Source: a virus (Duplodnaviria > Heunggongvirae > Uroviricota > Caudoviricetes). Taken from it: DNA of 28,944 bases. Shown piece after piece: positions 2,741 to 25,711 of the stretch. The notes under the pieces are model-generated. The model saw only the letters and a program-made list of their open reading frames with translations, did not search any database and was not told the origin of the DNA. The translations under genes were made by a program, and so were the position numbers. The stretch lies in the IMG/VR virus record IMGVR_UViG_2667527522_000007. One strand, written 5' to 3'. Each line of letters begins with the position of its first letter. Within the stretch, counting starts at the first letter, position 1.

Positions 2741-5188
2741 TTAACCGTCATGCATCATGCTGGCACGGGCGCGCGCACGTTTATCCCGCTCGTATTTTTC
2801 GAGCGCATCCTGTAACTGGCGGTCAAGCTGTGTCCCCGGCGCAGTACCACCCGTCAGGCTGATGTGATATTCGTTTTTACTCTGGTCCACATAAGAGCGG
2901 CCAGCCGGTGCCGTGACCGGCTGATAAGCCTGATAGCCTGCATAAGAGCTGGTCGCCGGAATATAACCACCGCTGCCATACGTGGCGGCTTGAGTTCTGG
3001 CGGCGGTCTGGTCAAGTGTGTCTGACTCTTTGTTGATAACACCGAGTTTTTCCAGTACCCAGTCAATACCGCTGCGCAGTTTGTTGAACGCATTAAGCGG
3101 CAGCATCAGCGCGTCAGCCAGTGCCTGCCCGAACATGCCCCCCGTGTCACGGCAACTGTTCAGGGTGTCCTGAGTGGCTTTGACCGGAGCAATCAGGTTT
3201 TTAAACCACTGCCACGCGGCCTGTAACTTTTCACCCAGCCAGTCAAACACCGGCTTAAGTGGCGTGAACAGTTCCCCCACCGGCGCAAATGCCACTTTCA
3301 GCCCTTCAACCACACCGCCAAAGAATGCGCTGACAGGCTCCCAGTATTTACGGATAAGCAACGCCCCGGTGACAATTGCGGCCACCACGGCCACAACCGG
3401 CCAGCTAATAGCCCCGATGGCGGTCATAACAGCACTGCCAACCGTCGTGAAGACTGCCCCCATTGCGCCTGCTGCCGCGATGATGGCATTGATGCCGGTG
3501 ATAACCGGCCAGGCTACGAGGCCAATGGCACCGATGATGCCAGTCAGCGCCAGCGCGCCACCGGCAATGATGCCGATGGTTGACGCCAGTGATTTGTTTT
3601 TCTGGATCCAGCCGTCGAGTTTTAACACATACTTTGTGGCCGTCTGCGTGAGCTTACGCAGCGCGCCTTCCTGCTGGTCAAACAGGTCAGTCCCCACTGC
3701 CTCATAAGCGGACTGAAACTCTTTAAAGTCACCGCCTAGGTTGTCCTGCATGATATTTACCAGCTCGGCGGTCTTCCCGTCTGAGGCTTTAAACGCAGCG
3801 GTCAGTTTGTCCAGCTTTCCGGTTGAGGCGGCAGTCATCAGCACGGCGGCGGCTGAGCTGGCCTCCTCCCCGAAAATAGTTTTCATGTATTCAGCCTGCT
3901 GGGCAGTACCGAGCCGGTTTTTCTCAAAACTGGCCTGCATTTCTTTCAGAATGGTAAATATTGGCCGGGTGTTTCCCTTGCTGTCTGAGGTTTTCACGCC
4001 AAGCTCTTTGAGTGCATCCCATGCTTTTCCCGTCGGTGCCTGCAGGCGGCTTAACACGGCACGGCTTCCCGTCCCCGCCATTGAGCCTGTGATTTTTGCA
4101 TCATGCAGCGCCCCGACCATTGCGGCGGTTTCTTCAATGCTGACACCGGCATTTTTTGCCACAGGTGCGGCATAGGTCAGCGCATCGCTCATGCCGTCAA
4201 AATCGGCGGCGGTTTTGTTCATCGTCATGGAGAGAACATCCCCGATATGAGCGACCTTATCGTTTGAAAGCTGAAAGGCGGATTTCATCCCCATCAGCAG
4301 GGCGGCGTTTTCTTCCATCGTGCGGCGGTTCGCCAGCGCCATATTCAGCGTGACCGGCGTTGCCGCCTGAATGGCATCAACATCCCCACCCGCTTTCGCG
4401 ATGATTATCTGTGCACCGGCCGCATCATCCGCCGAGGCGGCGGTATTGTCGCCGAGCTGGCGCGCCTGTTTGCGTAGTGCGGTCATTTCGGCGGAGTCTT
4501 TTGCCACTCCGAGCACGGCCTGCAATTCTGAGTTTTTCTGCGCAAACTCATAACCGGGCATCAGCAGCTTAACTCCGGCCATCGTTCCCGCCGCCGCAAT
4601 CCCCACACCGGCAGCGCCCACCGAGGCCATATTTCCGGCCAGTTCCTTTCCGGCCTGATAACGCTGTTTGACTGCGTTAAGTTTTGCCTGTTGCGCACTG
4701 ACACGCGCCAGCGCGTCGCGCTGACGGTTAAGCTGTGCGGTGGTTTCACTGATACGGTTTTTCAGTCCCTGCTCATCATGTGCAAGATTGCGGGTATTAA
4801 TTCCCACAGCGGCCAGTTCCCGCTGCTGGCGTTTAACGGAATCCGTCAGGCGGTTATATTTCGCCTGTAAGTCCTCCGCCGCACGCTTTGCGGATTCCAG
4901 CACTTTCGCCTGAGCACGGGTCGGACGTTCGGTGTTTTTAAACTGTGTGGCAAGGGCTTCAGCCTCCTGCCGTGCCTTTTCAAGTGCATGACCAGTCACG
5001 GCGAGCTGTGCACTGGTCTTGCGAAATCCCTCAATACGGGACGCCTGACCGTTCAGCTCGCGCAGTGATTTTTGTGTTTCCCGGATATCCCCCGACAGCG
5101 ATTTGCTCGCTGTGCGGATGGATTTAAACGGGCGGGATGCCTGGTCAACAGCCCTGAGCAATACCTGTAATTTTACATTGTTACTCAT
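2741..5188 (-). CDS. T: Tail tape measure protein T
   Basis: 815 aa, Ala/Gly-rich with coiled-coil N-terminus and hydrophobic central segments; follows E/E'. Confidence 0.85.
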   Translation of the reverse strand: MSNNVKLQVLLRAVDQASRPFKSIRTASKSLSGDIRETQKSLRELNGQASRIEGFRKTSAQLAVTGHALEKARQEAEALATQFKNTERPTRAQAKVLESAKRAAEDLQAKYNRLTDSVKRQQRELAAVGINTRNLAHDEQGLKNRISETTAQLNRQRDALARVSAQQAKLNAVKQRYQAGKELAGNMASVGAAGVGIAAAGTMAGVKLLMPGYEFAQKNSELQAVLGVAKDSAEMTALRKQARQLGDNTAASADDAAGAQIIIAKAGGDVDAIQAATPVTLNMALANRRTMEENAALLMGMKSAFQLSNDKVAHIGDVLSMTMNKTAADFDGMSDALTYAAPVAKNAGVSIEETAAMVGALHDAKITGSMAGTGSRAVLSRLQAPTGKAWDALKELGVKTSDSKGNTRPIFTILKEMQASFEKNRLGTAQQAEYMKTIFGEEASSAAAVLMTAASTGKLDKLTAAFKASDGKTAELVNIMQDNLGGDFKEFQSAYEAVGTDLFDQQEGALRKLTQTATKYVLKLDGWIQKNKSLASTIGIIAGGALALTGIIGAIGLVAWPVITGINAIIAAAGAMGAVFTTVGSAVMTAIGAISWPVVAVVAAIVTGALLIRKYWEPVSAFFGGVVEGLKVAFAPVGELFTPLKPVFDWLGEKLQAAWQWFKNLIAPVKATQDTLNSCRDTGGMFGQALADALMLPLNAFNKLRSGIDWVLEKLGVINKESDTLDQTAARTQAATYGSGGYIPATSSYAGYQAYQPVTAPAGRSYVDQSKNEYHISLTGGTAPGTQLDRQLQDALEKYERDKRARARASMMHDG

Positions 5189-5608
5189 TCGTGTTTCCGC
5201 TTCGCCGGAGCGCCTTTTCGCGCCATGTGATGAGTTCGGTCAGGCTCATGGGATACAGTTCTGATGGCGGCCAGTGAAATATCACTGCCACATCCGCCAT
5301 CAGGTCATCGACCGAGAGATTTTTCGGGAACGTCACTGCACCGAGTTCGGCGACAAAAAACCGACCACCTTACCGGCCAGCGCCACAAGGTCAGGCAGTT
5401 CCAGCGCGGCGACTTCCTGCTCGGTCAGCATCGGTGCCGTCATGCGCGGCAGCACTTTAATCAGTGCATCGACTTCGGAGTTTGCAACCGCAGCCAGACT
5501 GACACCGCGCAGCGTCCCGGCATTGGGTTTCATCAGCGTGACCTGTTCGATAACCTGCTCACCACGTTTGACCGGATTGTCCAGGGTAATGACATTTTCT
5601 TTGTTCAT
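5181..5608 (-). CDS. E': E+E' fusion chaperone produced by programmed -1 frameshift
   Basis: After the slippery site the -1 frame stays open to a TAA at 5181-5183, overlapping the T start; extension reads ...SELYPMSLTELITWREKALRRSGNTNE. Confidence 0.6.
5333..5608 (-). CDS. E: Tail assembly chaperone E
   Basis: 91 aa ORF upstream of T ending ...GFLSPNSVQ; contains slippery site. Confidence 0.8.
   Translation of the reverse strand: MNKENVITLDNPVKRGEQVIEQVTLMKPNAGTLRGVSLAAVANSEVDALIKVLPRMTAPMLTEQEVAALELPDLVALAGKVVGFLSPNSVQ
5354..5360 (-). other. Slippery heptamer T_TTT_TTG for E/E' -1 ribosomal frameshift
   Basis: Minus-strand codons GGT TTT TTG near the 3' end of E. Confidence 0.6.
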
Positions 5609-5663
5609 GGTTTTCTCACTTCTGAATCGGGGTTACCGGTCAGCCTGGCTGACCGGATGAAAA

Positions 5664-6182
5664 TCACAGGCCGATATTGCGGCGGTGTTGCTCCAGCCGG
5701 TCGACGCCGTTCACCTTCTCAATCATGTTGATGGTGTCAATTTCGACCAGCTCCTTACCGTCCATCGTCAGCAGGAAATAGGTGCAGACCACGGAGATTT
5801 TCGACTCGGTGTCTTCTCCCTGTTTACCCTCGCCGGTGTCGATTTCTTTCTGACGTCCACGCATGACCACCTCGACGGCCACCGTTTCGCCGGTATCGTC
5901 GCGCTGGTAAGAGCCTGCAAAACGAATCGGTACGGCATCCACACCGGTTGCGGCGTAAAGCTCCCAGATAACCGAATCCGGGAAGCCACCGAGCGACCAC
6001 TCCATTGACAGCGCATCGTCATCAAGGCCGAGGTCTACCGGTGCGCTGCCGTTCATCCCCGCACCGCGATAGTTTTCGAGCTTACGGGTCAGTTTTGGTA
6101 GCGTGACGGACTTCGCGACGCCCTGATAGCTGTAGCCGTTCAGAAAGACGTTCATTAACTTGAGTTTGCGCGGCATTGCCAT
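5664..6182 (-). CDS. FII: Tail tube protein FII
   Basis: 172 aa, between sheath and E. Confidence 0.85.
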   Translation of the reverse strand: MAMPRKLKLMNVFLNGYSYQGVAKSVTLPKLTRKLENYRGAGMNGSAPVDLGLDDDALSMEWSLGGFPDSVIWELYAATGVDAVPIRFAGSYQRDDTGETVAVEVVMRGRQKEIDTGEGKQGEDTESKISVVCTYFLLTMDGKELVEIDTINMIEKVNGVDRLEQHRRNIGL

Positions 6183-19107: not shown

Positions 19108-19280
19108 TGTCAGGAGTCCTGAATAGTGATTAGAGGAGTCACATGTCGGCATCAGTTTCCCGACGATGCGCATCCTCCGCCATCAGTCCCGGATGGCTTA
19201 TCACTGACACAACAGCACCTTAGCGAATCGCGGGGCGCGACTCAGTAGCCTTGCCGTGTATTCATCACGGCGAGGTATTC
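19108..19280. promoter_or_regulatory. Divergent late promoter region (P-Q leftward partner versus O-N-M-L...), presumably Ogr-dependent
   Basis: Intergenic gap between divergently transcribed O and P; assigned by synteny with P2, motifs not verified. Confidence 0.4.
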
Positions 19281-21053
19281 ATGACCATCACCACAGACAC
19301 CACTCTTTTACACGACCCGCGTCGTCAGGCGGCGCTGCTGTACTGGCAGGGGTTTTCCGTGCCGCAGATTGCCGCCATGTTGCAGATGAAACGCCCGACG
19401 GTGCAGAGCTGGAAACAGCGCGACGGCTGGGACAGCGTTGCCCCCATCAGCCGTGTCGAAATGAGTCTGGAAGCGCGGCTGACCCAGCTCATCATCAAAC
19501 CGCAGAAAACCGGCGGTGACTTCAAGGAAATTGACCTGCTGGGACGCCAGATTGAACGGCTGGCGCGGGTCAACCGCTACAGTCAGACCGGCAACGAGGC
19601 AGACCTTAATCCGAACGTCGCTAACCGCAACAAAGGCGGGCGTCGCAAACCGAAAAAGAATTTTTTCAGTGACGAGGCCATCGAAAAGCTGGAGCAGATT
19701 TTCTTTGAGCAGTCTTTCGACTATCAGTTGCACTGGTATCGCGCCGGGCTTGAGCACCGCATCCGCGATATCCTGAAATCCCGCCAGATTGGCGCGACGT
19801 TTTATTTTTCCCGCGAGGCGCTGCTGCGCGCCCTGAAAACCGGTCATAACCAGATTTTTCTGTCGGCCAGTAAAACGCAGGCGTATGTGTTCCGCGAATA
19901 CATCATCGCCTTTGCCCGGCTGGTTGACGTTGACCTGACCGGTGACCCGATTGTCCTGGGCAATAACGGCGCAAAACTGATTTTTCTCGGCACCAACTCC
20001 AACACCGCGCAGAGCCATAACGGCGACCTGTACGTCGATGAGATTTTCTGGATCCCGAATTTTCAGGTACTGCGTAAGGTGGCATCAGGTATGGCCTCAC
20101 AGAGTCACCTGCGCTCGACCTATTTCTCCACCCCGTCCACGCTGGCGCACGACGCCTATCCGTTCTGGTCGGGTGAACTGTTCAACCGGGGACGCGCCAG
20201 CGCCGCCGAACGCGTGGAAATCGACGTCAGTCATAACGCCCTTGCCGGTGGGCTTCTCTGTGCGGACGGCCAGTGGCGGCAGATTGTCACCATTGAGGAC
20301 GCCCTGAAAGGTGGCTGCACGCTGTTCGACATTGAGCAGCTTAAACGCGAAAACAGCGCCGACGATTTTAAAAACCTGTTCATGTGTGAATTTGTTGACG
20401 ACAAGGCGTCGGTGTTCCCGTTCGAGGAGCTGCAACGCTGCATGGTCGACACGCTGGAAGAATGGGAAGACTATGCGCCGTTTGCCGCGAATCCGTTCGG
20501 CTCCCGCCCGGTATGGATTGGTTACGACCCGTCACACCGTGGCGACAGCGCCGGATGCGTGGTGCTGGCACCGCCGGTGGTGGCCGGTGGCAAATTCAGA
20601 ATACTTGAGCGTCACCAGTGGAAAGGCATGGACTTTGCCACTCAGGCGGAATCCATCCGCAAACTCACCGAAAAATACAACGTCGAATACATCGGTATTG
20701 ATGCCACCGGCCTCGGTGTCGGCGTGTTCCAGCTCGTGCGCTCGTTCTATCCCGCCGCGCGCGATATCCGCTACACGCCGGAAATGAAAACCGCAATGGT
20801 GCTCAAGGCAAAAGACGTTATCCGCCGTGGCTGTCTGGAATATGACGTCAGCGCCACCGACATCACCAGCTCGTTTATGGCTATCCGCAAGACCATGACC
20901 AGCAGCGGACGCAGCGCCACCTATGAGGCCAGCCGCAGCGAGGAAGCCAGCCACGCCGACCTCGCCTGGGCAACCATGCACGCCCTGTTAAATGAGCCAC
21001 TCACCGCCGGTATCAGCACTCCGCTGACATCCACCATTCTGGAGTTTTACTGA
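19281..21053 (+). CDS. P: Terminase large subunit (ATPase) P
   Basis: 590 aa from MTITTDTTLL; same length as P2 gpP. Confidence 0.85.
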   Translation: MTITTDTTLLHDPRRQAALLYWQGFSVPQIAAMLQMKRPTVQSWKQRDGWDSVAPISRVEMSLEARLTQLIIKPQKTGGDFKEIDLLGRQIERLARVNRYSQTGNEADLNPNVANRNKGGRRKPKKNFFSDEAIEKLEQIFFEQSFDYQLHWYRAGLEHRIRDILKSRQIGATFYFSREALLRALKTGHNQIFLSASKTQAYVFREYIIAFARLVDVDLTGDPIVLGNNGAKLIFLGTNSNTAQSHNGDLYVDEIFWIPNFQVLRKVASGMASQSHLRSTYFSTPSTLAHDAYPFWSGELFNRGRASAAERVEIDVSHNALAGGLLCADGQWRQIVTIEDALKGGCTLFDIEQLKRENSADDFKNLFMCEFVDDKASVFPFEELQRCMVDTLEEWEDYAPFAANPFGSRPVWIGYDPSHRGDSAGCVVLAPPVVAGGKFRILERHQWKGMDFATQAESIRKLTEKYNVEYIGIDATGLGVGVFQLVRSFYPAARDIRYTPEMKTAMVLKAKDVIRRGCLEYDVSATDITSSFMAIRKTMTSSGRSATYEASRSEEASHADLAWATMHALLNEPLTAGISTPLTSTILEFY

Positions 21054-22087
21054 TGAGCAAGAAAAAAGGGAAAACACCGCGACCTGCGGCAAAAACAATC
21101 ACCGCCAGCGCCCCGAAAATGGAAGCATTCACCTTTGGCGAGCCGGTGCCGGTACTCGACCGCCGTGACATTCTGGATTACGTCGAGTGCATCAGTAACG
21201 GCAGATGGTATGAGCCGCCGGTCAGCTTTACCGGTCTGGCAAAAAGCCTGCGTGCTGCCGTGCATCACAGCTCACCGATTTACGTCAAACGTAATATTCT
21301 GGCTTCAACGTTTATCCCGCACCCGTGGCTTTCCCAGCAGGATTTCAGCCGTTTTGTGCTGGATTTTCTGGTGTTCGGTAATGCGTTTCTGGAAAAGCGT
21401 TACAGCACCACCGGTAAGGTCATCAGACTGGAAACCTCACCGGCAAAATATACCCGCCGTGGCGTGGAGGAGGATGTTTACTGGTGGGTGCCGTCCTTCA
21501 ACGAGCCGACAGCCTTCACACCCGGCTCCGTGTTTCACCTGCTGGAGCCGGATATTAATCAGGAGTTGTACGGCCTGCCGGAATATCTCAGCGCCCTTAA
21601 TTCTGCCTGGCTGAATGAGTCGGCCACGCTGTTCCGCCGAAAGTATTACGAAAACGGCGCACATGCCGGATACATCATGTACGTTACCGATGCCGTGCAG
21701 GATCGCAACGATATCGAAATGCTTCGCGAAAACATGGTGAAGTCGAAAGGCCGCAACAACTTTAAAAACCTGTTTCTCTATGCCCCGCAGGGGAAAGCCG
21801 ACGGCATTAAAATTATCCCGCTCAGTGAAGTGGCGACGAAGGACGATTTTTTTAATATCAAAAAAGCCAGCGCCGCTGACCTGCTGGACGCACACCGCAT
21901 CCCCTTTCAGTTGATGGGTGGCAAGCCGGAGAACGTCGGGTCACTGGGCGATATTGAGAAAGTGGCAAAGGTCTTTGTCCGCAATGAGCTAATCCCGTTA
22001 CAGGACAGGATTCGGGAAATAAACGGCTGGCTCGGTCAGGAGGTCATCCGCTTTAAAAACTACTCACTGGACACTGACAACGGCTGA
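21053..22087 (+). CDS. Q: Portal protein Q
   Basis: 344 aa, same length as P2 gpQ; start overlaps P stop; adjacent to cos. Confidence 0.85.
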   Translation: MSKKKGKTPRPAAKTITASAPKMEAFTFGEPVPVLDRRDILDYVECISNGRWYEPPVSFTGLAKSLRAAVHHSSPIYVKRNILASTFIPHPWLSQQDFSRFVLDFLVFGNAFLEKRYSTTGKVIRLETSPAKYTRRGVEEDVYWWVPSFNEPTAFTPGSVFHLLEPDINQELYGLPEYLSALNSAWLNESATLFRRKYYENGAHAGYIMYVTDAVQDRNDIEMLRENMVKSKGRNNFKNLFLYAPQGKADGIKIIPLSEVATKDDFFNIKKASAADLLDAHRIPFQLMGGKPENVGSLGDIEKVAKVFVRNELIPLQDRIREINGWLGQEVIRFKNYSLDTDNG

Positions 22088-22092
22088 ACATC

Positions 22093-22114
22093 GCCGCCTG
22101 CGGGCGGCTTTTTT
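22093..22114 (+). terminator. Rho-independent terminator after Q
   Basis: gccgcc-tgcg-ggcggc followed by tttttt. Confidence 0.6.
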
Positions 22115-22256
22115 ACACCCCGCCATCACGCCCTCACACGCTCACCACCGCACAAAACAGCCCGCAGACACACCAACGCCCCGGCGAACAATCTAAACGC
22201 CATCACGACGCGCTCAGACGCTGAAAAAATAAAATCAGCACCACCGCCAGCGCGCA

Positions 22257-22275
22257 GTGCTTTCCCCGCCTCGCC
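22257..22275. other. cos cohesive-end site (19 nt)
   Basis: gtgctttccccgcctcgcc is the reverse complement of GGCGAGGCGGGGAAAGCAC, the P2 cohesive end as I remember it; lies just after Q as in P2. Confidence 0.6.
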
Positions 22276-22560
22276 CGCCCGCTTCACGGGGCGGTTTTAA
22301 TGCAGTTGCATAGATACTATGGATCCGCACCAGTCCTGACCGCACGCCGCCTGAACGGACATCCCCAACGCATGCAAAAACATTCACTTGTTGCATGCAT
22401 AGCTTTTTAAGTACGCCATACCGCAACTGTACATTTTTAAGCAATTGGCAACTTTAAAAAATTTACATTGCTTTCAAGACCTTATCATCCGTAGTCTCTG
22501 TTTTTTACTTTGAGCTACATCAATAAAATCTCAAACATGTTTAATGCAAAGCCCTTGTTA

Positions 22561-22615
22561 CACAACATAGAATGTATGCCTAGAAACAACGACATACTAT
22601 ATGTTGTGTTTTTCC
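22561..22615 (+). other. Long imperfect hairpin with U-tract (candidate sRNA 3' end or attenuator) in the accessory cassette
   Basis: cacaacata...tatgttgtg 9-bp outer stem with an inner gtatg/catac stem, followed by ttttt; possible promoter TTTACA-15-TATCAT about 80 bp upstream (22462-22488). Confidence 0.3.
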
Positions 22616-22675
22616 GGCTCTCTGTTCGGTGATATGCCAAATCACTTTGCGTTTAAACAGAGCATTATTTCAGGG

Positions 22676-22690
22676 CAAGACTTCGCTCAA
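22676..22690 (+). repeat. 15-bp direct repeat, copy 1 (caagacttcgctcaa)
   Basis: Exact 15-mer repeated at 22940-22954. Confidence 0.5.
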
Positions 22691-22753
22691 AAGTCATTCC
22701 ACCTAAGAAGCGCATATACCGGTGGAAGTTGCCCTCTACTTACAGGAGGCAAT

Positions 22754-22867
22754 ATGAAGAAATGCTATTACTGCATTCTCGTTCTGGCCCTCTTTGGCTA
22801 TCCAAACGGTAGTCCGAGTGGTTTGTCAGTAAACGTCAGTAATATCAATGTCAGCATTATGCTTTAA
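22754..22867 (+). CDS. Small 37-aa hydrophobic peptide, function unknown (candidate moron or small toxin-like peptide)
   Basis: AGGAGG 4 nt upstream of ATG; MKKCYYCILVLALFGYPNGSPSGLSVNVSNINVSIML; terminator immediately downstream; the 88-aa track ORF 22601..22867 has no RBS. Confidence 0.3.
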   Translation: MKKCYYCILVLALFGYPNGSPSGLSVNVSNINVSIML

Positions 22868-22880
22868 TATGCTTCAAACA

Positions 22881-22910
22881 AAAAAACCACCTGCCAGGGT
22901 GGTTTTTTTG
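22881..22910. terminator. Bidirectional rho-independent terminator (A-tract, hairpin, T-tract)
   Basis: aaaaaaccacc-tgccag-ggtggttttttt; could terminate both the small-ORF transcript and the convergent early operon ending with A. Confidence 0.6.
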
Positions 22911-22939
22911 CGCCCATCATCAATACGATGAAAGACTGA

Positions 22940-22954
22940 CAAGACTTCGCTCAA
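22940..22954 (+). repeat. 15-bp direct repeat, copy 2 (caagacttcgctcaa)
   Basis: Exact copy of 22676-22690; the pair brackets the small ORF and terminator. Confidence 0.5.
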
Positions 22955-23169
22955 GACGAATTATGCGTCGACATAAGGTTACCCGCAATGATTTTATTAG
23001 ACTAAATGGATGGCCTTTTATGACCCGGATCAAACGGCTGTCCTTACCGACATGCTAGTCACTCAATAGCATTTAGCCTTCTAATTCAGCATGCTATTGA
23101 CCTTCTGCTGCCCCATAACTGCTCCGCATAAGCCATTCAATGCCATATCAAATCACGTTGTGTTTTTAC

Positions 23170-25446
23170 TCAAATGGGTAACGAGAACCCCGGCCACTCA
23201 TCAGCAACCGGATACGTGAATTTTTTCCCGTCATAATTTACGGTCGCGCCACGCGCCAGCGCCTCAAGCTCCCATCGTTGCGGCCTGATACCGTTCTGAG
23301 CGAGGTCAACGCGGATACGGGTAATTTGCATTCTTTCCGACCGGGTCAGTCTGGCCGATGGTGCAATTTCATGTGGTTTTAACGGGCTTCCGTTTCTTTG
23401 CTGACGATTTGGTGTTCTCAGTCCGTGTTTTAATGCGCCCCTGAGCGCCATCACGACCTCCGGGTCACTCCATTCGATAACACCGTCATCTACCAGATTA
23501 AGCACTGCTGCGGCGTGCTCAGAAGGTGTGGGAGCCGGTAACGAAGTATCACCACCGGTGAGCTTTCCACAGTTATTGACAGGACTCCGAGGCGCGGCGA
23601 TGCCGCTTTTTAAAGTCAAAGGCTCAACGACCGGAACTTTCGGCACAATGCGCCAGTCCGTCGTTCTGGTGATATGAATATGACGCGCGCCGAGATGCGG
23701 CGCGTAAATGCCGACCACTCTCTCGACTTCTTCCTCGTATTCGTTAACGTCATCCGACGGGCTACGGGCGACCCTGACAGTCTGACAATCGCGCGGGACA
23801 TTTGCCCCGCCCTGCGCGCTGATATACAGCGCAAAATCGCCACTGTCTGCGGCGGCGCGTGCAGCCTCCACGCGTTCGTCAAATTCATCAGCAATGCTGA
23901 CGCCGCGAGGCAATTTACGTAGCTCACGGTAAGCTCCCATTGTCGGCAGGCCAACCGTTTTAAATTGCGGGATGCGCCACGTTGATGCCCATGCGGTAAC
24001 AGCCGCCGCAGTATCTTTCAGCGGCCTACCGGTATCATTATCGAGCTGACCATCCAGTGCATAGCCGTCGATGTTTTTTGAGATGTATTTCGCGATATAT
24101 CCCGCAGCACCGCCCCGGTTAAGGTGTTTTGCCTGAAAACGGTTTCGCGCGGCTCCTCTTTCGTCGCCATCCTCTTTGAGCGCATAGCGACGCATGATTT
24201 CAATAATCTGGTTACGCTGGCGTGGATTACAAAAAAGCATCATATGCCAGTGCGGCGTTCCGTCGTGGTGTGGCTCGACGACACGCAAACCGTAGACCTG
24301 TAAGTCATTATCCTTGAATGCCGTGCGCATCAGGCTCCAGATACGGCAGAGATATCGCTGCGCATCCTTTGGATTAAATGCCTCATCATTCCAGCCGTGA
24401 TTAAGCTGGACGGTTTTACTTTCGCCTTTTCCGACCTGACGTGCCGGGTGATACTTTGACGGCGCGGTCAGCGTGATAAACATCCCCACATCACCCTCTG
24501 CGGCGGCGTAACGCTCAATACCGGCAATGGTGTTCATCAGCTCCATCCGGCGAATTTCAGGATTAGAAATACTGCCCATCACCTTACTGATAAGGTCGAT
24601 GCGCTCGCCGGTTTCCCTGTTTTCAAGGTCACACGATTTAAGAAATTCCAGATTTGCCTGGCGGCGCGCACGCACATCACGAATGGCATGTTTACTGGCA
24701 TAAGGAGAACGGTCTTTATTGACCTCCCCGACAGCTATCAGTAACGCTTCATGCCAGCGCATACGCTGGCCTTTAAGCTGATGAGTCCACCACTCATCGT
24801 TAAACAGACGGGCAATGGCAGAATATGCCTGCCTCGTGGTCATCTGTCCTTTACGGTATTTTTTCCAGTAGAGAGGGGAAATATTGAAAGCACGTGCAGC
24901 GCCAGCAACATGACCATAGAGGTGAGCCTGCGCCTCATCCGTAAACAGCGATTCTTTCTCGCCATGCGCATCCACCCAGGCATCGCTGAGTTCCTCATAC
25001 ATCATGAAAAGCTGCGATGAGATACGGGCGGCAAACTTTTTCAGCTCCTTGTCATTCATTCCCGGCAGGCGCGCATAGTGGTCACGCTCTGCCAGAAACA
25101 GCATCGACGCGTCGGTGTTCATTTCATGGCGCTGATTCACACGCTCAATGCGCGGCCATAAACGACGCTGAAAAGTGGATGTGAGGAAATAAAACCCGTG
25201 CACCGGGCTTTTATTGCGCCGGATGTAGTCATAGCGTGAAGTAAACAGCGAGCGCAAAAAGTAAGGCAGGCGGTTAATCGTGGATAAAACACCTTGCACC
25301 TGACGCATCTCGTCACGTGTAAGAGGTCTTTCGCGCCCGACAGCCTCGCGTGGCGCGTTCCATGCATAAGCACCGGTAAACGCCTTACCGGTGCCTGCGG
25401 CAAATGCTGACGGAGGGACAAAACGCCCGGAGGCTTTAACGGCCAT
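23170..25446 (-). CDS. A: Replication initiation protein A (rolling-circle nickase family); start chosen at MAVKASGRF
   Basis: About 758 aa; P2 gpA-like by length and position at the end of the early operon. Confidence 0.85.
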   Translation of the reverse strand: MAVKASGRFVPPSAFAAGTGKAFTGAYAWNAPREAVGRERPLTRDEMRQVQGVLSTINRLPYFLRSLFTSRYDYIRRNKSPVHGFYFLTSTFQRRLWPRIERVNQRHEMNTDASMLFLAERDHYARLPGMNDKELKKFAARISSQLFMMYEELSDAWVDAHGEKESLFTDEAQAHLYGHVAGAARAFNISPLYWKKYRKGQMTTRQAYSAIARLFNDEWWTHQLKGQRMRWHEALLIAVGEVNKDRSPYASKHAIRDVRARRQANLEFLKSCDLENRETGERIDLISKVMGSISNPEIRRMELMNTIAGIERYAAAEGDVGMFITLTAPSKYHPARQVGKGESKTVQLNHGWNDEAFNPKDAQRYLCRIWSLMRTAFKDNDLQVYGLRVVEPHHDGTPHWHMMLFCNPRQRNQIIEIMRRYALKEDGDERGAARNRFQAKHLNRGGAAGYIAKYISKNIDGYALDGQLDNDTGRPLKDTAAAVTAWASTWRIPQFKTVGLPTMGAYRELRKLPRGVSIADEFDERVEAARAAADSGDFALYISAQGGANVPRDCQTVRVARSPSDDVNEYEEEVERVVGIYAPHLGARHIHITRTTDWRIVPKVPVVEPLTLKSGIAAPRSPVNNCGKLTGGDTSLPAPTPSEHAAAVLNLVDDGVIEWSDPEVVMALRGALKHGLRTPNRQQRNGSPLKPHEIAPSARLTRSERMQITRIRVDLAQNGIRPQRWELEALARGATVNYDGKKFTYPVADEWPGFSLPI

Positions 25447-25711
25447 ATGAGCCAAAAGCCTCAGAACAACGCTTGCTGAGTTGCTCAACCTGCGCGTTTA
25501 AATCAGCAAAAGACTTTGCGCTTCCGGTCAGAATATCGTGATGCATCAGGCCGGAAACGAGCTGGCTTAATTTCGGGTAATAACCAACCACCGCCAGCCA
25601 TTCCTGACCGGCGTTTTTACCGCTTTCCGCTCTCTTTTTCTCGTGGAGAATAAACTGAAAGCTGTCACTGGTAACGACATAACGTTCGCCAATTTCGATA
25701 CGAATACTCAT
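25436..25711 (-). CDS. Early-operon hypothetical protein (P2 orf83 position)
   Basis: 91 aa; stop overlaps A start; synteny. Confidence 0.6.
   Translation of the reverse strand: MSIRIEIGERYVVTSDSFQFILHEKKRAESGKNAGQEWLAVVGYYPKLSQLVSGLMHHDILTGSAKSFADLNAQVEQLSKRCSEAFGSYGR

Follow-up and report, generated by a model that had tools for sequence, protein, structure and literature searches.

A mobile small-protein cassette with a timPR-like design, a predicted convergent antisense RNA and a promoter homologous to that of host nrdDG

We have identified a self-contained cassette of about 540 bp (22454-22990) in a 28,944-nucleotide viral sequence, the whole of which is referred to here as the window, and conclude that it is probably (we put the chance at roughly 0.7) a type I toxin-antitoxin-style unit of small protein and antisense RNA, with a timPR-like design and belonging to a family apart. 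The cassette consists of a promoter, a leader, a short open reading frame (ORF), a terminator and a predicted small RNA (sRNA) with its own promoter. Several hallmarks of type I systems can be read from the sequence. A genuine ORF encodes a small protein with predicted membrane targeting, an adjacent antisense RNA gene with promoter and terminator is found by sequence prediction, and the predicted pairing between sRNA and mRNA is conserved, with joint changes that come from a single phylogenetic split. An nrdDG-derived promoter, an sRNA that would pair with the leader and a terminator common to both transcripts make a toxin/antitoxin-style reading much more specific.

The small-protein gene occupies positions 22754-22867 of the plus strand (37 sense codons, product MKKCYYCILVLALFGYPNGSPSGLSVNVSNINVSIML, with TAA at 22865-22867) and follows a Shine-Dalgarno AGGAGG at 22744-22749 and the 4-nt spacer CAAT. 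The initial annotation had pointed to this motif 4 nt upstream of the ATG and to an ORF of 37 codons, and both proved exact when the letters were rechecked. AGGAGG followed by 3-9 nt, an ATG and at least 30 codons has only two instances in the window, and the configuration of AGGAGG, ATG and ORF arose in 39 of 5,000 shuffles of the 1,083-nt intergenic stretch. All relatives carry GGAGG, GGAG or AGGA 4-9 nt upstream of the ATG. A longer in-frame ORF of 88 codons, from an ATG at 22601, was considered as the gene and rejected; it exists in the window's clade only and is interrupted by an in-frame TAG in other clades, so that 22754 is the conserved start.

The cassette is carried by P2-like prophages in about 150 complete Escherichia coli genomes, including E. 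coli W (NC_017635, near 2.331 Mb), by a filamentous phage (inovirus) and by 426 plasmids, and where it is annotated at all it is labelled 'hypothetical'. In the window it is the sole content of the P2 gpA-gpQ defence hotspot, and on conjugative elements it adjoins TraI. Such mobility is typical of addiction modules. Homologous peptides of 37-39 amino acids, whose length differences are whole codons only, are encoded by diverged cassettes of Kluyvera, Klebsiella, Leclercia and Enterobacter. Scans for homologues used the in-frame 88-amino-acid ORF and hand-made degenerate codon patterns as queries. Those of viral contigs and metagenomes returned nothing beyond three closely related P2 clades, and the codon-degenerate pattern had no match in species-representative genomes. 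A scan with a 26-mer of the terminator matched mostly ColE1-type plasmid origins and also yielded three diverged cassettes. Peptide profile searches matched no family in Pfam and none in PADLOC, and a search of PHROGs gave a single meaningless match (E = 0.34).

In sequence identity and in the order of its parts, the promoter region (22454-22580, plus strand; predicted transcription start near 22581) is homologous, element for element, to the promoter of host nrdDG. Over 71 nt it shares 85-87% identity with the intergenic region between treC and nrdD, which is present in 5,425 of 5,426 E. coli genomes; nrdDG encodes the anaerobic ribonucleotide reductase of the host. The homology spans about -140 to +30 and takes in FNR site 2, FNR site 1, the -10 hexamer and the NrdR boxes in the same order. 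All lineages share the element geometry of the nrdDG promoter, and the cassettes of Leclercia and Enterobacter match its spacing to the base pair. The FNR sites of nrdDG have been published at -64.5 and -33.5 (PMC10425943). The counterpart of the first, FNR site 2 (TTGAGCTACATCAA, 22510-22523, plus strand), is identical to the K-12 nrdDG site and, with one mismatch, is the top FNR-type match of the whole window. The counterpart of the second, FNR site 1 (22541-22554, plus strand), is degraded to TTAAT-N4-AGCCC in the window's clade; TTGAT is kept there in the other P2 clades, Kluyvera, Leclercia, Enterobacter and one of the two Klebsiella copies. The two sites are 31 bp apart, matching nrdDG, and the distance from FNR site to the -10 hexamer (TAGAAT, 22568-22573, plus strand; TAAAAT in nrdDG and other clades) equals that of K-12 nrdDG.

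Predicted NrdR control varies among lineages. NrdR box 2 (ATACTATATGTTGTGT, 22594-22609, plus strand) scores 20.2 bits, the best in the 28.9-kb window, and outscores all six E. coli training boxes, which were drawn from the NrdR-bound probes of PMC12176259; genuine boxes reach 10.4-16.1 bits against a model built without them. The NrdR-like box 1 (ACACAACATAGAATGT, 22560-22575, plus strand) is weak, its 11.2 bits being the third-best match in the window, and it stands 9 bp out of register with nrdDG, with a linker to box 2 of 18 bp (16 bp in clades 2/3). The box pair keeps an nrdDG-type linker of 15-16 bp in Leclercia (15 bp) and Enterobacter (16 bp), lies one extra helical turn apart in Kluyvera and is largely lost in the Klebsiella copies. 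Thus, given the loss in Klebsiella and the weak, shifted box 1 and 18-bp linker in the window, NrdR control is not universal in the family and is doubtful here. The window's promoter departs from that of nrdDG in this linker and in the degradation of site 1 and box 1. Whereas the host version drives the reductase, the cassette version drives a small-protein gene on mobile DNA, and beyond box 2 the cassette leader bears no relation to the 5′ untranslated region of nrdD.

[quoted passage not shown] Both mRNAs, that of the cassette as predicted, are about 300-330 nt long and have a long structured leader with a hairpin over the Shine-Dalgarno. The proteins are of similar size (38-41 amino acids there, 37-39 here), and both consist of a basic N-terminus, a hydrophobic run of about 14 residues and a polar Asn/Ser-rich tail. 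In K-12 timP the leader is bound by the 5′ end of a trans-encoded sRNA at a target that ends 64 nt before the ATG; in the cassette family the corresponding distance would be 63-67 nt, and in both cases the pairing arises from a direct repeat in the DNA. The two differ in layout and setting: timR is divergent and lies upstream, whereas the predicted sRNA of the cassette is convergent, lies downstream and has its terminator in common with the mRNA; timPR occupies a fixed chromosomal locus (sseA-sseB), whereas the cassette is found on mobile elements. Additionally, the nrdDG-derived promoter and an alternating tail in the peptide belong to the cassette family only. Membership of the TimP family was tried with a curated profile, hhalign and phmmer, and homology was not established. 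The NCBIfam profile NF040796 (TimP) gives 86.8 bits on K-12 TimP and did not match four members of the cassette family at E <= 10; hhalign against TimP gave a probability of 16% (P = 0.0016) over the N-terminal 20 columns only; and phmmer against 1.84 billion proteins returned no TimP. The Rfam RyfA model (RF00126) likewise had no match in the window at E <= 10 or in two relatives at E <= 1.

Other type I systems share part of this design. As in tisB/istR-1, zorO/orzO, shoB/ohsC and dinQ/agrB, a short trans-acting sRNA would be encoded nearby and would pair with the leader at a long distance ahead of the ribosome-binding site. In these systems the toxin promoters are under stress control, those of tisB and dinQ being wired to the host regulator LexA (PMC13159721, in part). 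The regulatory input predicted for the cassette is FNR/NrdR, not LexA. The toxins of the tisB, zorO, shoB and dinQ systems each consist of one strongly hydrophobic helix, with a KD(19) of about 2.5, versus 1.1-1.9 across the present family, and they have no sequence similarity to its peptides.

The peptide carries a basic N-terminus and an uncharged, hydrophobic run of 14 residues, and the initial annotation, which described a basic N-terminus, a hydrophobic stretch and a polar tail, holds in all its sequence statements. It had also found the hydrophobic stretch short for a transmembrane helix. That worry is met by a comparison: the hydropathy profile of the stretch is that of the signal-anchor-like N-terminus of TimP, a protein that is membrane-bound by experiment (PMC7667032). 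The tail is amphipathic, with conserved alternation of polar and hydrophobic residues that is specific to this family. A single-sequence AlphaFold model of the peptide was of low confidence (pLDDT 60).

These properties bear on whether the product is a toxin. It is possible, though we hold it to be unlikely, that it is instead a regulated small membrane protein, a conditional accessory, expressed without oxygen and/or under nucleotide stress, that modulates host membrane function and is fine-tuned by the sRNA, with no addiction or killing. The hydropathy of the peptide is unlike that of the pore-forming TisB, ZorO and Hok, and the conserved alternating tail suggests a specific interaction surface. 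Additionally, the promoter faithfully reproduces one that is physiological and condition-specific, not constitutive, and endogenous TimP itself is not detectably toxic at native levels, with growth permitted when native TimP is de-repressed (PMC7667032). However, an occluded Shine-Dalgarno combined with an antisense RNA amounts to the two-layer control that is typical for genes that are harmful if leaky (PMC11228461), and movement as a self-contained unit among unrelated mobile elements, in a defence hotspot and beside plasmid transfer genes, is what addiction and exclusion modules display. A toxin-antitoxin-style unit is the reading that we prefer.

Covariation indicates that the leader (22581-22753, plus strand, 173 nt) folds into a conserved RNA structure, in which one hairpin covers the Shine-Dalgarno. 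Its consensus fold, computed with RNAalifold over eight lineages, has 26 pairs, of which 11 show compensatory double changes; 92% of the leader cells are paired, versus 40-50% when the partners are slid, and none of 500 shuffles reaches the score. Stem-loop 1 (22620-22662, plus strand) is formed by an outer stem CTCTGTT/AACAGAG and an inner stem GGTGAT/ATCACT, and stem-loop 3 (22698-22726, plus strand) by TCCACC/GGTGGA. The hairpin over the Shine-Dalgarno (about 22731-22750, plus strand) is small and short, and is 78% paired across lineages.

Downstream of the gene and convergent with it, we predict an sRNA of about 73 nt (22880-22952, minus strand) composed of a free 5′ seed, a middle hairpin and a terminator hairpin, the seed being the reverse complement of 22937-22952. 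Its fold has z-scores of -3.3 to -3.7 in four lineages, and the consensus structure contains three compensatory pairs in the middle hairpin. A predicted sigma-70-type promoter (22960-22988, minus strand) has a -35 element TTGCGG (22988-22983), a 17-nt spacer and a -10 element CATAAT (22965-22960). Across the six lineages compared, CATAAT is invariant and stands 5-7 nt from the repeat, a -35 beginning TTGC lies 17-18 nt upstream of it, and the sequence of the spacer is unconserved; the pair of Klebsiella copies is arranged alike. A consensus promoter scanner did not list this promoter, because its -35 matches just three of six positions in the window's clade.

The target of the seed is the first copy of a direct repeat in the leader (22674-22690, plus strand; core CAAGACTTCGCTCAA at 22676-22690). 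The exact 15-nt repeat occurs only twice in the window, and none of 100 shuffles gives two matches. In all lineages the target ends 63-67 nt upstream of the ATG. Seed and target would form a duplex of 16-17 bp, in which pairing reaches 96%, versus 30-41% for slid partners. Three duplex pairs have changed on both partners, with AAGACTTCGCTC becoming AAGGCTTTGCTC jointly in seed and target; all three compensatory changes fall on one phylogenetic split, that of Leclercia and Enterobacter versus the rest. One P2 sub-clade has an uncompensated C22688A in the target. Elsewhere, the copies of the repeat differ in wobble-compatible ways (C/T in Kluyvera, GA/AG in P2 clades). These observations point to a conserved minus-strand promoter placed to start an RNA complementary to the leader, with coordinated changes that appear to keep the complementarity.

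We regard it as improbable that the repeats are features of the DNA, such as recombination scars at the edges of the cassette or two sites bound by one protein, with transcriptional control only and no antisense pairing. The copies are identical as DNA words, so gene conversion between them could keep them alike and could also be the source of the joint changes in seed and target, and the covariation does rest on that single split. In an Enterobacter MAG, the ORF is separated from the second repeat by a 217-amino-acid gene and a second copy of the terminator, showing that the interval is recombinogenic. What this account leaves unexplained is the position-conserved minus-strand promoter, with its invariant -10 and unconserved spacer, from which an RNA would begin exactly at the repeat, the terminator that follows, and the compensatory changes by which the RNA between the two keeps its hairpin. 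The fixed distance from repeat to ATG, which resembles that of timP, also argues for pairing, and wobble-compatible differences between copies fit RNA pairing and are unexpected for one protein site or for conversion. Additionally, no empty site between the repeats was seen among the E. coli matches listed.

The mRNA and the predicted sRNA would share one bidirectional intrinsic terminator (22879-22910, both strands; A7-CCACC-TGCCAG-GGTGG-T7). It is a perfect 13-bp inverted repeat, CAAAAAAACCACC/GGTGGTTTTTTTG, and since A7 stands on one side and T7 on the other, the hairpin can terminate transcription both ways. The ORF had been credited with its own terminator within 15 nt; the hairpin does begin 11 nt past the stop, but it is bidirectional and thus not the ORF's alone. 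It is the most conserved element of the cassette (0-2% divergence, versus 8-13% in its neighbours) and is invariant in all lineages. A consensus terminator scanner did not list the hairpin at 22879-22910. Its 27-nt hairpin, AAAAACCACCTGCCAGGGTGGTTTTT, recurs without change as the 3′ hairpin of RNAI in many small plasmids of the ColE1 type. We rejected these plasmids as relatives, as the hairpin alone is in common, the cassette lacks RNAII and any origin context, and the Rfam RNAI model (RF00106) reaches 22-28 bits against a threshold of 47. Rfam OrzO-P (21-24 bits against a threshold of 60, confined to the terminator) and STnc and NrrF (sub-threshold, hairpin only; NrrF is unrelated to NrdR) were likewise set aside.

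A terminator placed this close behind a short ORF recalls a leader-peptide attenuator, in which translation would matter in cis by setting read-through past the hairpin, antisense into gene A. We consider this very improbable. Read-through would indeed run antisense to a replication gene, and the Rfam Phe leader model gives sub-threshold matches; however, these are confined to the hairpin and reach 23-26 bits against a threshold of 55, the ORF is without a run of regulatory amino-acid codons, and the genes downstream are entirely different in P2, inovirus and plasmid settings, whereas the predicted convergent sRNA is always present. Additionally, the amino-acid sequence itself is conserved across the family, beyond the reading frame.

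The pattern of substitution indicates that the 37-codon frame is under purifying selection and is a real gene, as the initial annotation had proposed. Among 44 copies, nine of 14 independent substitutions are silent in the frame of the ORF and five are replacements, and one is silent in each of the other plus-strand frames; the Monte-Carlo expectation for the silent count is 3.8 (P = 0.0007). The frame is intact in all 44 full copies, with a stop-loss variant in a few genomes. Equal frequencies of synonymous and nonsynonymous changes would have counted against the gene; they are clearly not seen, as pN/pS is below 1 in all 28 lineage pairs (range 0.07-0.73). Constraint on the ORF is moderate, since its total divergence of 0.08-0.09 is close to the synonymous divergence of 0.10 in the neighbouring gene A. 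That the ORF is a chance frame in a non-coding transcript acting as RNA only is the least probable account of all, for although the non-coding leader is conserved to the same degree as the ORF and the RefSeq pipeline does not call the ORF, this account conflicts with the codon-position pattern and pN/pS values and with the retention of start, stop, Shine-Dalgarno and whole-codon indels at 46-54% nucleotide identity.

If the cassette is a toxin-antitoxin-style unit, its operation can be sketched. In the absence of oxygen FNR would switch on the mRNA, and NrdR, if its boxes are intact, would hold the mRNA down when dATP is plentiful. The sRNA, which we suppose to be constitutive, would bind the leader and keep the mRNA translationally silent, much as TimR, IstR-1 and OrzO act at sites well ahead of the ribosome-binding site. 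Peptide would be made when mRNA outruns sRNA or when the sRNA decays, and would insert in the inner membrane by its basic, hydrophobic, signal-anchor-like N-terminus, with the amphipathic alternating tail facing the periplasm or the membrane surface. At high dose the peptide may inhibit growth, leading to addiction for the carrier or to exclusion of superinfecting phage.

More tentatively still, and in our view rather unlikely, the cassette might be a suicide or exclusion module that senses nucleotide pools and oxygen, with the captured, FNR/NrdR-controlled nrdDG promoter transcribing the gene of a membrane-active peptide when dATP falls or once the element has been lost. A fall in dATP would be expected while a superinfecting lytic phage replicates, and the short-lived antisense RNA would serve as a timer. 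If this were true, about 100 E. coli genomes would have such a module as the sole cargo of their main P2 anti-phage hotspot, and about 400 Klebsiella conjugative plasmids would carry a stability or defence determinant that has escaped recognition.

These findings give a defined cargo to a copy of the P2 defence hotspot that seemed to hold no gene, as a 37-codon ORF and an sRNA are invisible to gene-based surveys. The same cassette lies unannotated on hundreds of IncF conjugative plasmids of clinical Klebsiella pneumoniae, and would matter for the persistence of these plasmids should it be an addiction or exclusion module. Reuse of a complete nrdDG control region by a mobile element is an unusual regulatory capture that predicts a direct link of peptide expression to oxygen or dNTP status; our literature search found such capture described for no type I system. 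Additionally, the cassette would represent a second independent example of the timPR design, with its signal-anchor-like toxin, an sRNA whose site of action lies about 64 nt ahead of the start codon and regulation through RNA structure, and thus may help to separate what is general from what is idiosyncratic in the timPR mechanism.

The small hydrophobic peptide gene proposed in the initial annotation is real, and the locus is richer than was described. The sequence description held on rechecking: the Shine-Dalgarno sequence AGGAGG (22744-22749, + strand) is followed by the 4-nt spacer CAAT, an ATG at 22754 and 37 sense codons encoding MKKCYYCILVLALFGYPNGSPSGLSVNVSNINVSIML, which end at the TAA at 22865-22867. 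The window as a whole contains this configuration (AGGAGG, 3-9 nt, ATG and 30 or more codons) two times; when the intergenic stretch is shuffled, 0.8% of the shuffles contain it. The terminator hairpin reported downstream is also present, as the perfect inverted repeat CAAAAAAACCACC/GGTGGTTTTTTTG (22879-22910, both strands), but is not the ORF's alone: with A7 and T7 at its two ends, termination is possible from either direction, and the hairpin is shared with a predicted convergent small RNA (sRNA). Together with a promoter and leader, these elements form a cassette of about 540 bp (22454-22990), its end marked by a sharp fall in conservation past ~22990. Metagenome gene callers often give an N-terminally extended ORF at 22601-22867 of 88 aa (also 97, 89, 85 and 78), and one 88-aa form alone is on record for 680 contigs; these extensions are artefacts, as the in-frame 88-codon one, present in the window's clade, is interrupted by an in-frame TAG in other clades.

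Coding constraint was assessed in 44 full copies, gathered through whole-block DNA and not through the peptide, which represent 28 haplotypes in three clades of P2-like prophages (about 100%, 89% and 87% identity; hereafter the P2 clades). None of the 44 copies disrupts the 37-codon frame. Nine of 14 independent substitution events are silent in this frame (TAA to TAG included) and five replace an amino acid, compared with only one silent change among the 14 in each of the other two + frames; random relocation of the same mutation types gives a mean of 3.8 silent (P = 0.0007 for nine or more). Calibrated against a synonymous divergence of 0.10 between clades in the adjacent gene A, total divergence is 0.08-0.09 in the ORF, 0.09 in the leader, 0-0.02 in the terminator and 0.17-0.25 in the DNA past 22990. 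Constraint on the ORF is moderate, and shows in the codon pattern, not in overall identity.

More distant relatives were decisive. Three truly diverged cassettes emerged, amid many irrelevant ColE1 origins, from a scan for the terminator sequence; Klebsiella copies were added by a plasmid search, and one further lineage by an exhaustive phmmer search. Every diverged cassette encodes a homologous peptide at the same place (Kluyvera, MNRWHYCILVLALFFGYPVDNQSGLSLNISHVSVNILL; Klebsiella, MNRVCLCILVLTLFGYPVGSQSGWSIYVSHINVNISL; Leclercia, MNRRDCVCLFVLALISQLVVGQGSWMIYIHQISLSIQVH; Enterobacter MAG, MNRRHFLCVIVLAVISQLLTGQSNWLINVSQISISISV; P0111, MKRLYHCILVLALIGYPVGSQSNWSVTVSQVSINVSL), with length differences of whole codons only. 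All 28 pairs have pN/pS below 1, with values of 0.07-0.45 in those whose synonymous sites are unsaturated; like the 9 of 14 silent events, this departs from the equal synonymous and nonsynonymous frequencies that the initial annotation had named as evidence against a gene. Thus, the substitution patterns indicate that the ORF is a real small-protein gene. Profile searches of Pfam, NCBIfam, PHROGs and PADLOC gave no match for the peptide family, and phmmer against 1.84 billion representative proteins returned seven, all of them family members. At least 1000 public contigs contain the exact peptide, whose sole name there is "hypothetical protein" (ECW_m2278 is one such entry, a locus tag of which no mention was found in the literature). 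Stop-loss forms of 68 aa, with a frame that continues across the terminator, are found in a few E. coli records.

The predicted leader extends 173 nt from ~22581 to the ATG. Alignment of eight lineages gave four helices with 26 pairs, comprising an outer stem CUCUGUU/AACAGAG (22620-22626/22656-22662; CCCCGGC/GCCGGG in Enterobacter), an inner stem (22628-22633/22641-22646), a further stem (22698-22703/22721-22726) and a short hairpin that covers the Shine-Dalgarno. Covariation supports this structure: compensatory changes on both sides preserve pairing in 11 of the 26 pairs, 92% of cells are paired versus 40-50% with partners slid 1-3 columns, and none of 500 shuffles reached the observed covariation. 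In the first stem-loop, 22625-22654 also forms an imperfect 30-nt direct repeat (73% identity) with 23136-23165, directly downstream of the gene A stop codon, and a gene A transcript extending across that copy would have partial complementarity to the leader.

The 15-nt word CAAGACTTCGCTCAA has exactly two copies in the window, one in the leader (22676-22690) and one beyond the terminator (22940-22954). From a predicted - strand promoter (-35 TTGCGG, 22988-22983; 17-nt spacer; -10 CATAAT, 22965-22960), transcription would begin at ~22952, at the first bases of the second copy, and end at the shared hairpin, yielding an RNA of ~73 nt with its 5' end complementary to the leader. This antisense promoter is conserved: in all six lineages compared, a 13-17-nt word is common to the leader and to DNA 5-7 nt from an invariant CATAAT, the leader copy stops 63-67 nt short of the ATG, and an unconserved spacer of 17-18 nt separates CATAAT from an upstream TTGC... 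Two Klebsiella copies have the same arrangement. The predicted sRNA folds with a free 5' seed, a middle hairpin with compensatory changes and the invariant terminator (z = -3.3 to -3.7). Its seed-target duplex of 16-17 bp is 96% paired, versus 30-41% in slid registers; three positions are altered jointly on both partners (AAGACTTCGCTC to AAGGCTTTGCTC), all on one phylogenetic split, and the differences left between copies can be accommodated by wobble pairing (U.G in Kluyvera and, in the P2 clades, GA/AG opposite GG). One P2 sub-clade carries an uncompensated C22688A. These comparisons indicate that complementarity between sRNA and leader has been maintained in evolution. We infer that both predicted RNAs are expressed, and the sRNA would repress translation of the ORF.

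In one Enterobacter MAG (L062, reverse complement of 4450-6150), the cassette also contains a gene for a predicted membrane protein of 217 aa and an exact duplicate of the terminator, both located between the terminator of the small ORF and the sRNA gene. The cassette interior is therefore able to accept cargo, apparently gained here by recombination at the hairpin.

The promoter region (22454-22557) has 85-87% identity to the stretch between treC and nrdD, which carries no annotation, controls the anaerobic ribonucleotide reductase operon and is found in 5425 of 5426 E. coli genomes. There, nrdDG has two FNR motifs at -64.5 and -33.5 (PMC10425943), and NrdR binds a 57-bp probe with two 16-bp boxes 15 bp apart (PMC12176259). 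The window's best FNR-type match, TTGAGCTACATCAA (22510-22523), is followed 31 bp downstream by a second motif (22541-22554) and then by the -10 hexamer TAGAAT (22568-22573), with a predicted transcription start at ~22581. With a matrix built from six E. coli NrdR boxes, 22594-22609 scores 20.2 bits, the highest in the 28.9-kb window and above the training boxes, and a weak box at 22560-22575 ranks third (11.2 bits). Counted from one shared anchor, the FNR sites of nrdDG lie at +6 and +37, and its NrdR boxes at +47 and +78. Both FNR sites are kept in the Leclercia, Enterobacter and Kluyvera cassettes, with NrdR boxes at +47/+78, +47/+79 and +47/+89 (one extra helical turn), respectively. In the P2 clades, the strong NrdR box lies at +88 to +90 and a weak, shifted one at +56, and FNR site 1 is TTAAT in the window's clade; Klebsiella cassettes have a weak FNR site 2 (two mismatches), a good site 1 in one of two copies and largely lost NrdR boxes. 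The geometry retained across lineages thus argues that the nrdDG-like promoter is an ancestral, conserved part of the cassette. FNR and NrdR would control the predicted mRNA promoter; NrdR control of the window's copy is doubtful.

The window is a P2-like (Peduovirus) prophage. Terminase (19251-21053), portal (21053-22087) and the cos region next to it are separated from gene A, for the replication endonuclease (23170-25488, - strand), by a stretch of 1083 nt that contains no long ORF. This is the gpA-gpQ interval, which in P2-like phages serves as the principal hotspot for anti-phage defence (PMC9122126). The full stretch was found in 100 complete E. coli genomes, in which RefSeq annotates nothing within it. 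In the window, the cassette is the sole content of the hotspot, and no other gene lies at 22088-22453; the 87-89% clades (L001, L002, L005) have two or three further genes between cos and cassette, for an ImmA/IrrE-family metallopeptidase and hypothetical proteins. Other cargo of the hotspot is variable, while the cassette keeps its position at the gene A side.

Cassettes occur in P2-like prophages of 149-151 of 5426 complete E. coli genomes, strain W and derivatives included. One 4.83-Mb genome labelled E. coli 'DH5alpha' (H157, NZ_CP026085.1) has a 100% identical copy of the W-type P2 prophage cassette, which would not be expected in a K-12 derivative and suggests a mislabelled record. Additionally, the Kluyvera cassette lies in a filamentous phage beside Zot and secretin genes, those of Leclercia and Enterobacter adjoin TraI, a DsbA-like gene and a tyrosine recombinase, and 426 plasmids carry a cassette (395 from Klebsiella pneumoniae; 351 conjugative).

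Rfam gave no family at threshold, and every weak match fell on the hairpin. The 3' hairpin of RNAI from ColE1-type plasmids is identical to the terminator over 27 nt, loop included, which may reflect exchange of terminator modules between plasmids and cassette. In species-representative genomes, the terminator 26-mer matched 33 ColE1-type origins (within L051-L086), several on 2-3-kb contigs in Streptomyces, Micromonospora, Kocuria and other assemblies, suggestive of contamination with plasmid or vector DNA.

Among described systems, timPR (ryfA) comes closest. Its mRNA of ~300 nt encodes TimP (38 aa in Salmonella, 41 aa in K-12), which experiments showed to be an inner-membrane protein with a signal-sequence-like N-terminus and to be toxic when overexpressed; the TimR sRNA base-pairs through its 5' end to the 5' UTR, preventing a translation-competent fold of the RNA (PMC7667032, PMC11228461, PMC13000454). 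In K-12, 64 nt separate the end of the TimR target from the ATG, the same distance as for the cassette's leader target. Hydropathy of the cassette's peptide family matches TimP, unlike TisB, ZorO and Hok, and so answers the earlier worry that the hydrophobic stretch is short for a transmembrane helix. Membership in the TimP family is not supported by sequence comparison: no match came from the curated TimP model, from Rfam RyfA or from exhaustive phmmer searching, and profile-profile comparison gave 16% probability. The genes are divergent in timPR and convergent in the cassette, which also differs in promoter, genomic location and the conserved alternating polar/hydrophobic tail of its peptides. 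In the E. coli K-12 sseA-timP region (L087, 2690-2790), a second, unannotated timR-like copy, similar to timR in terminator and body, lies between annotated timR and timP.

The peptide would insert in the membrane and may be toxic, and the cassette may play a role in addiction or phage exclusion. The cassette can be classed as a new family of an already known kind, new also in its regulatory input and its layout.
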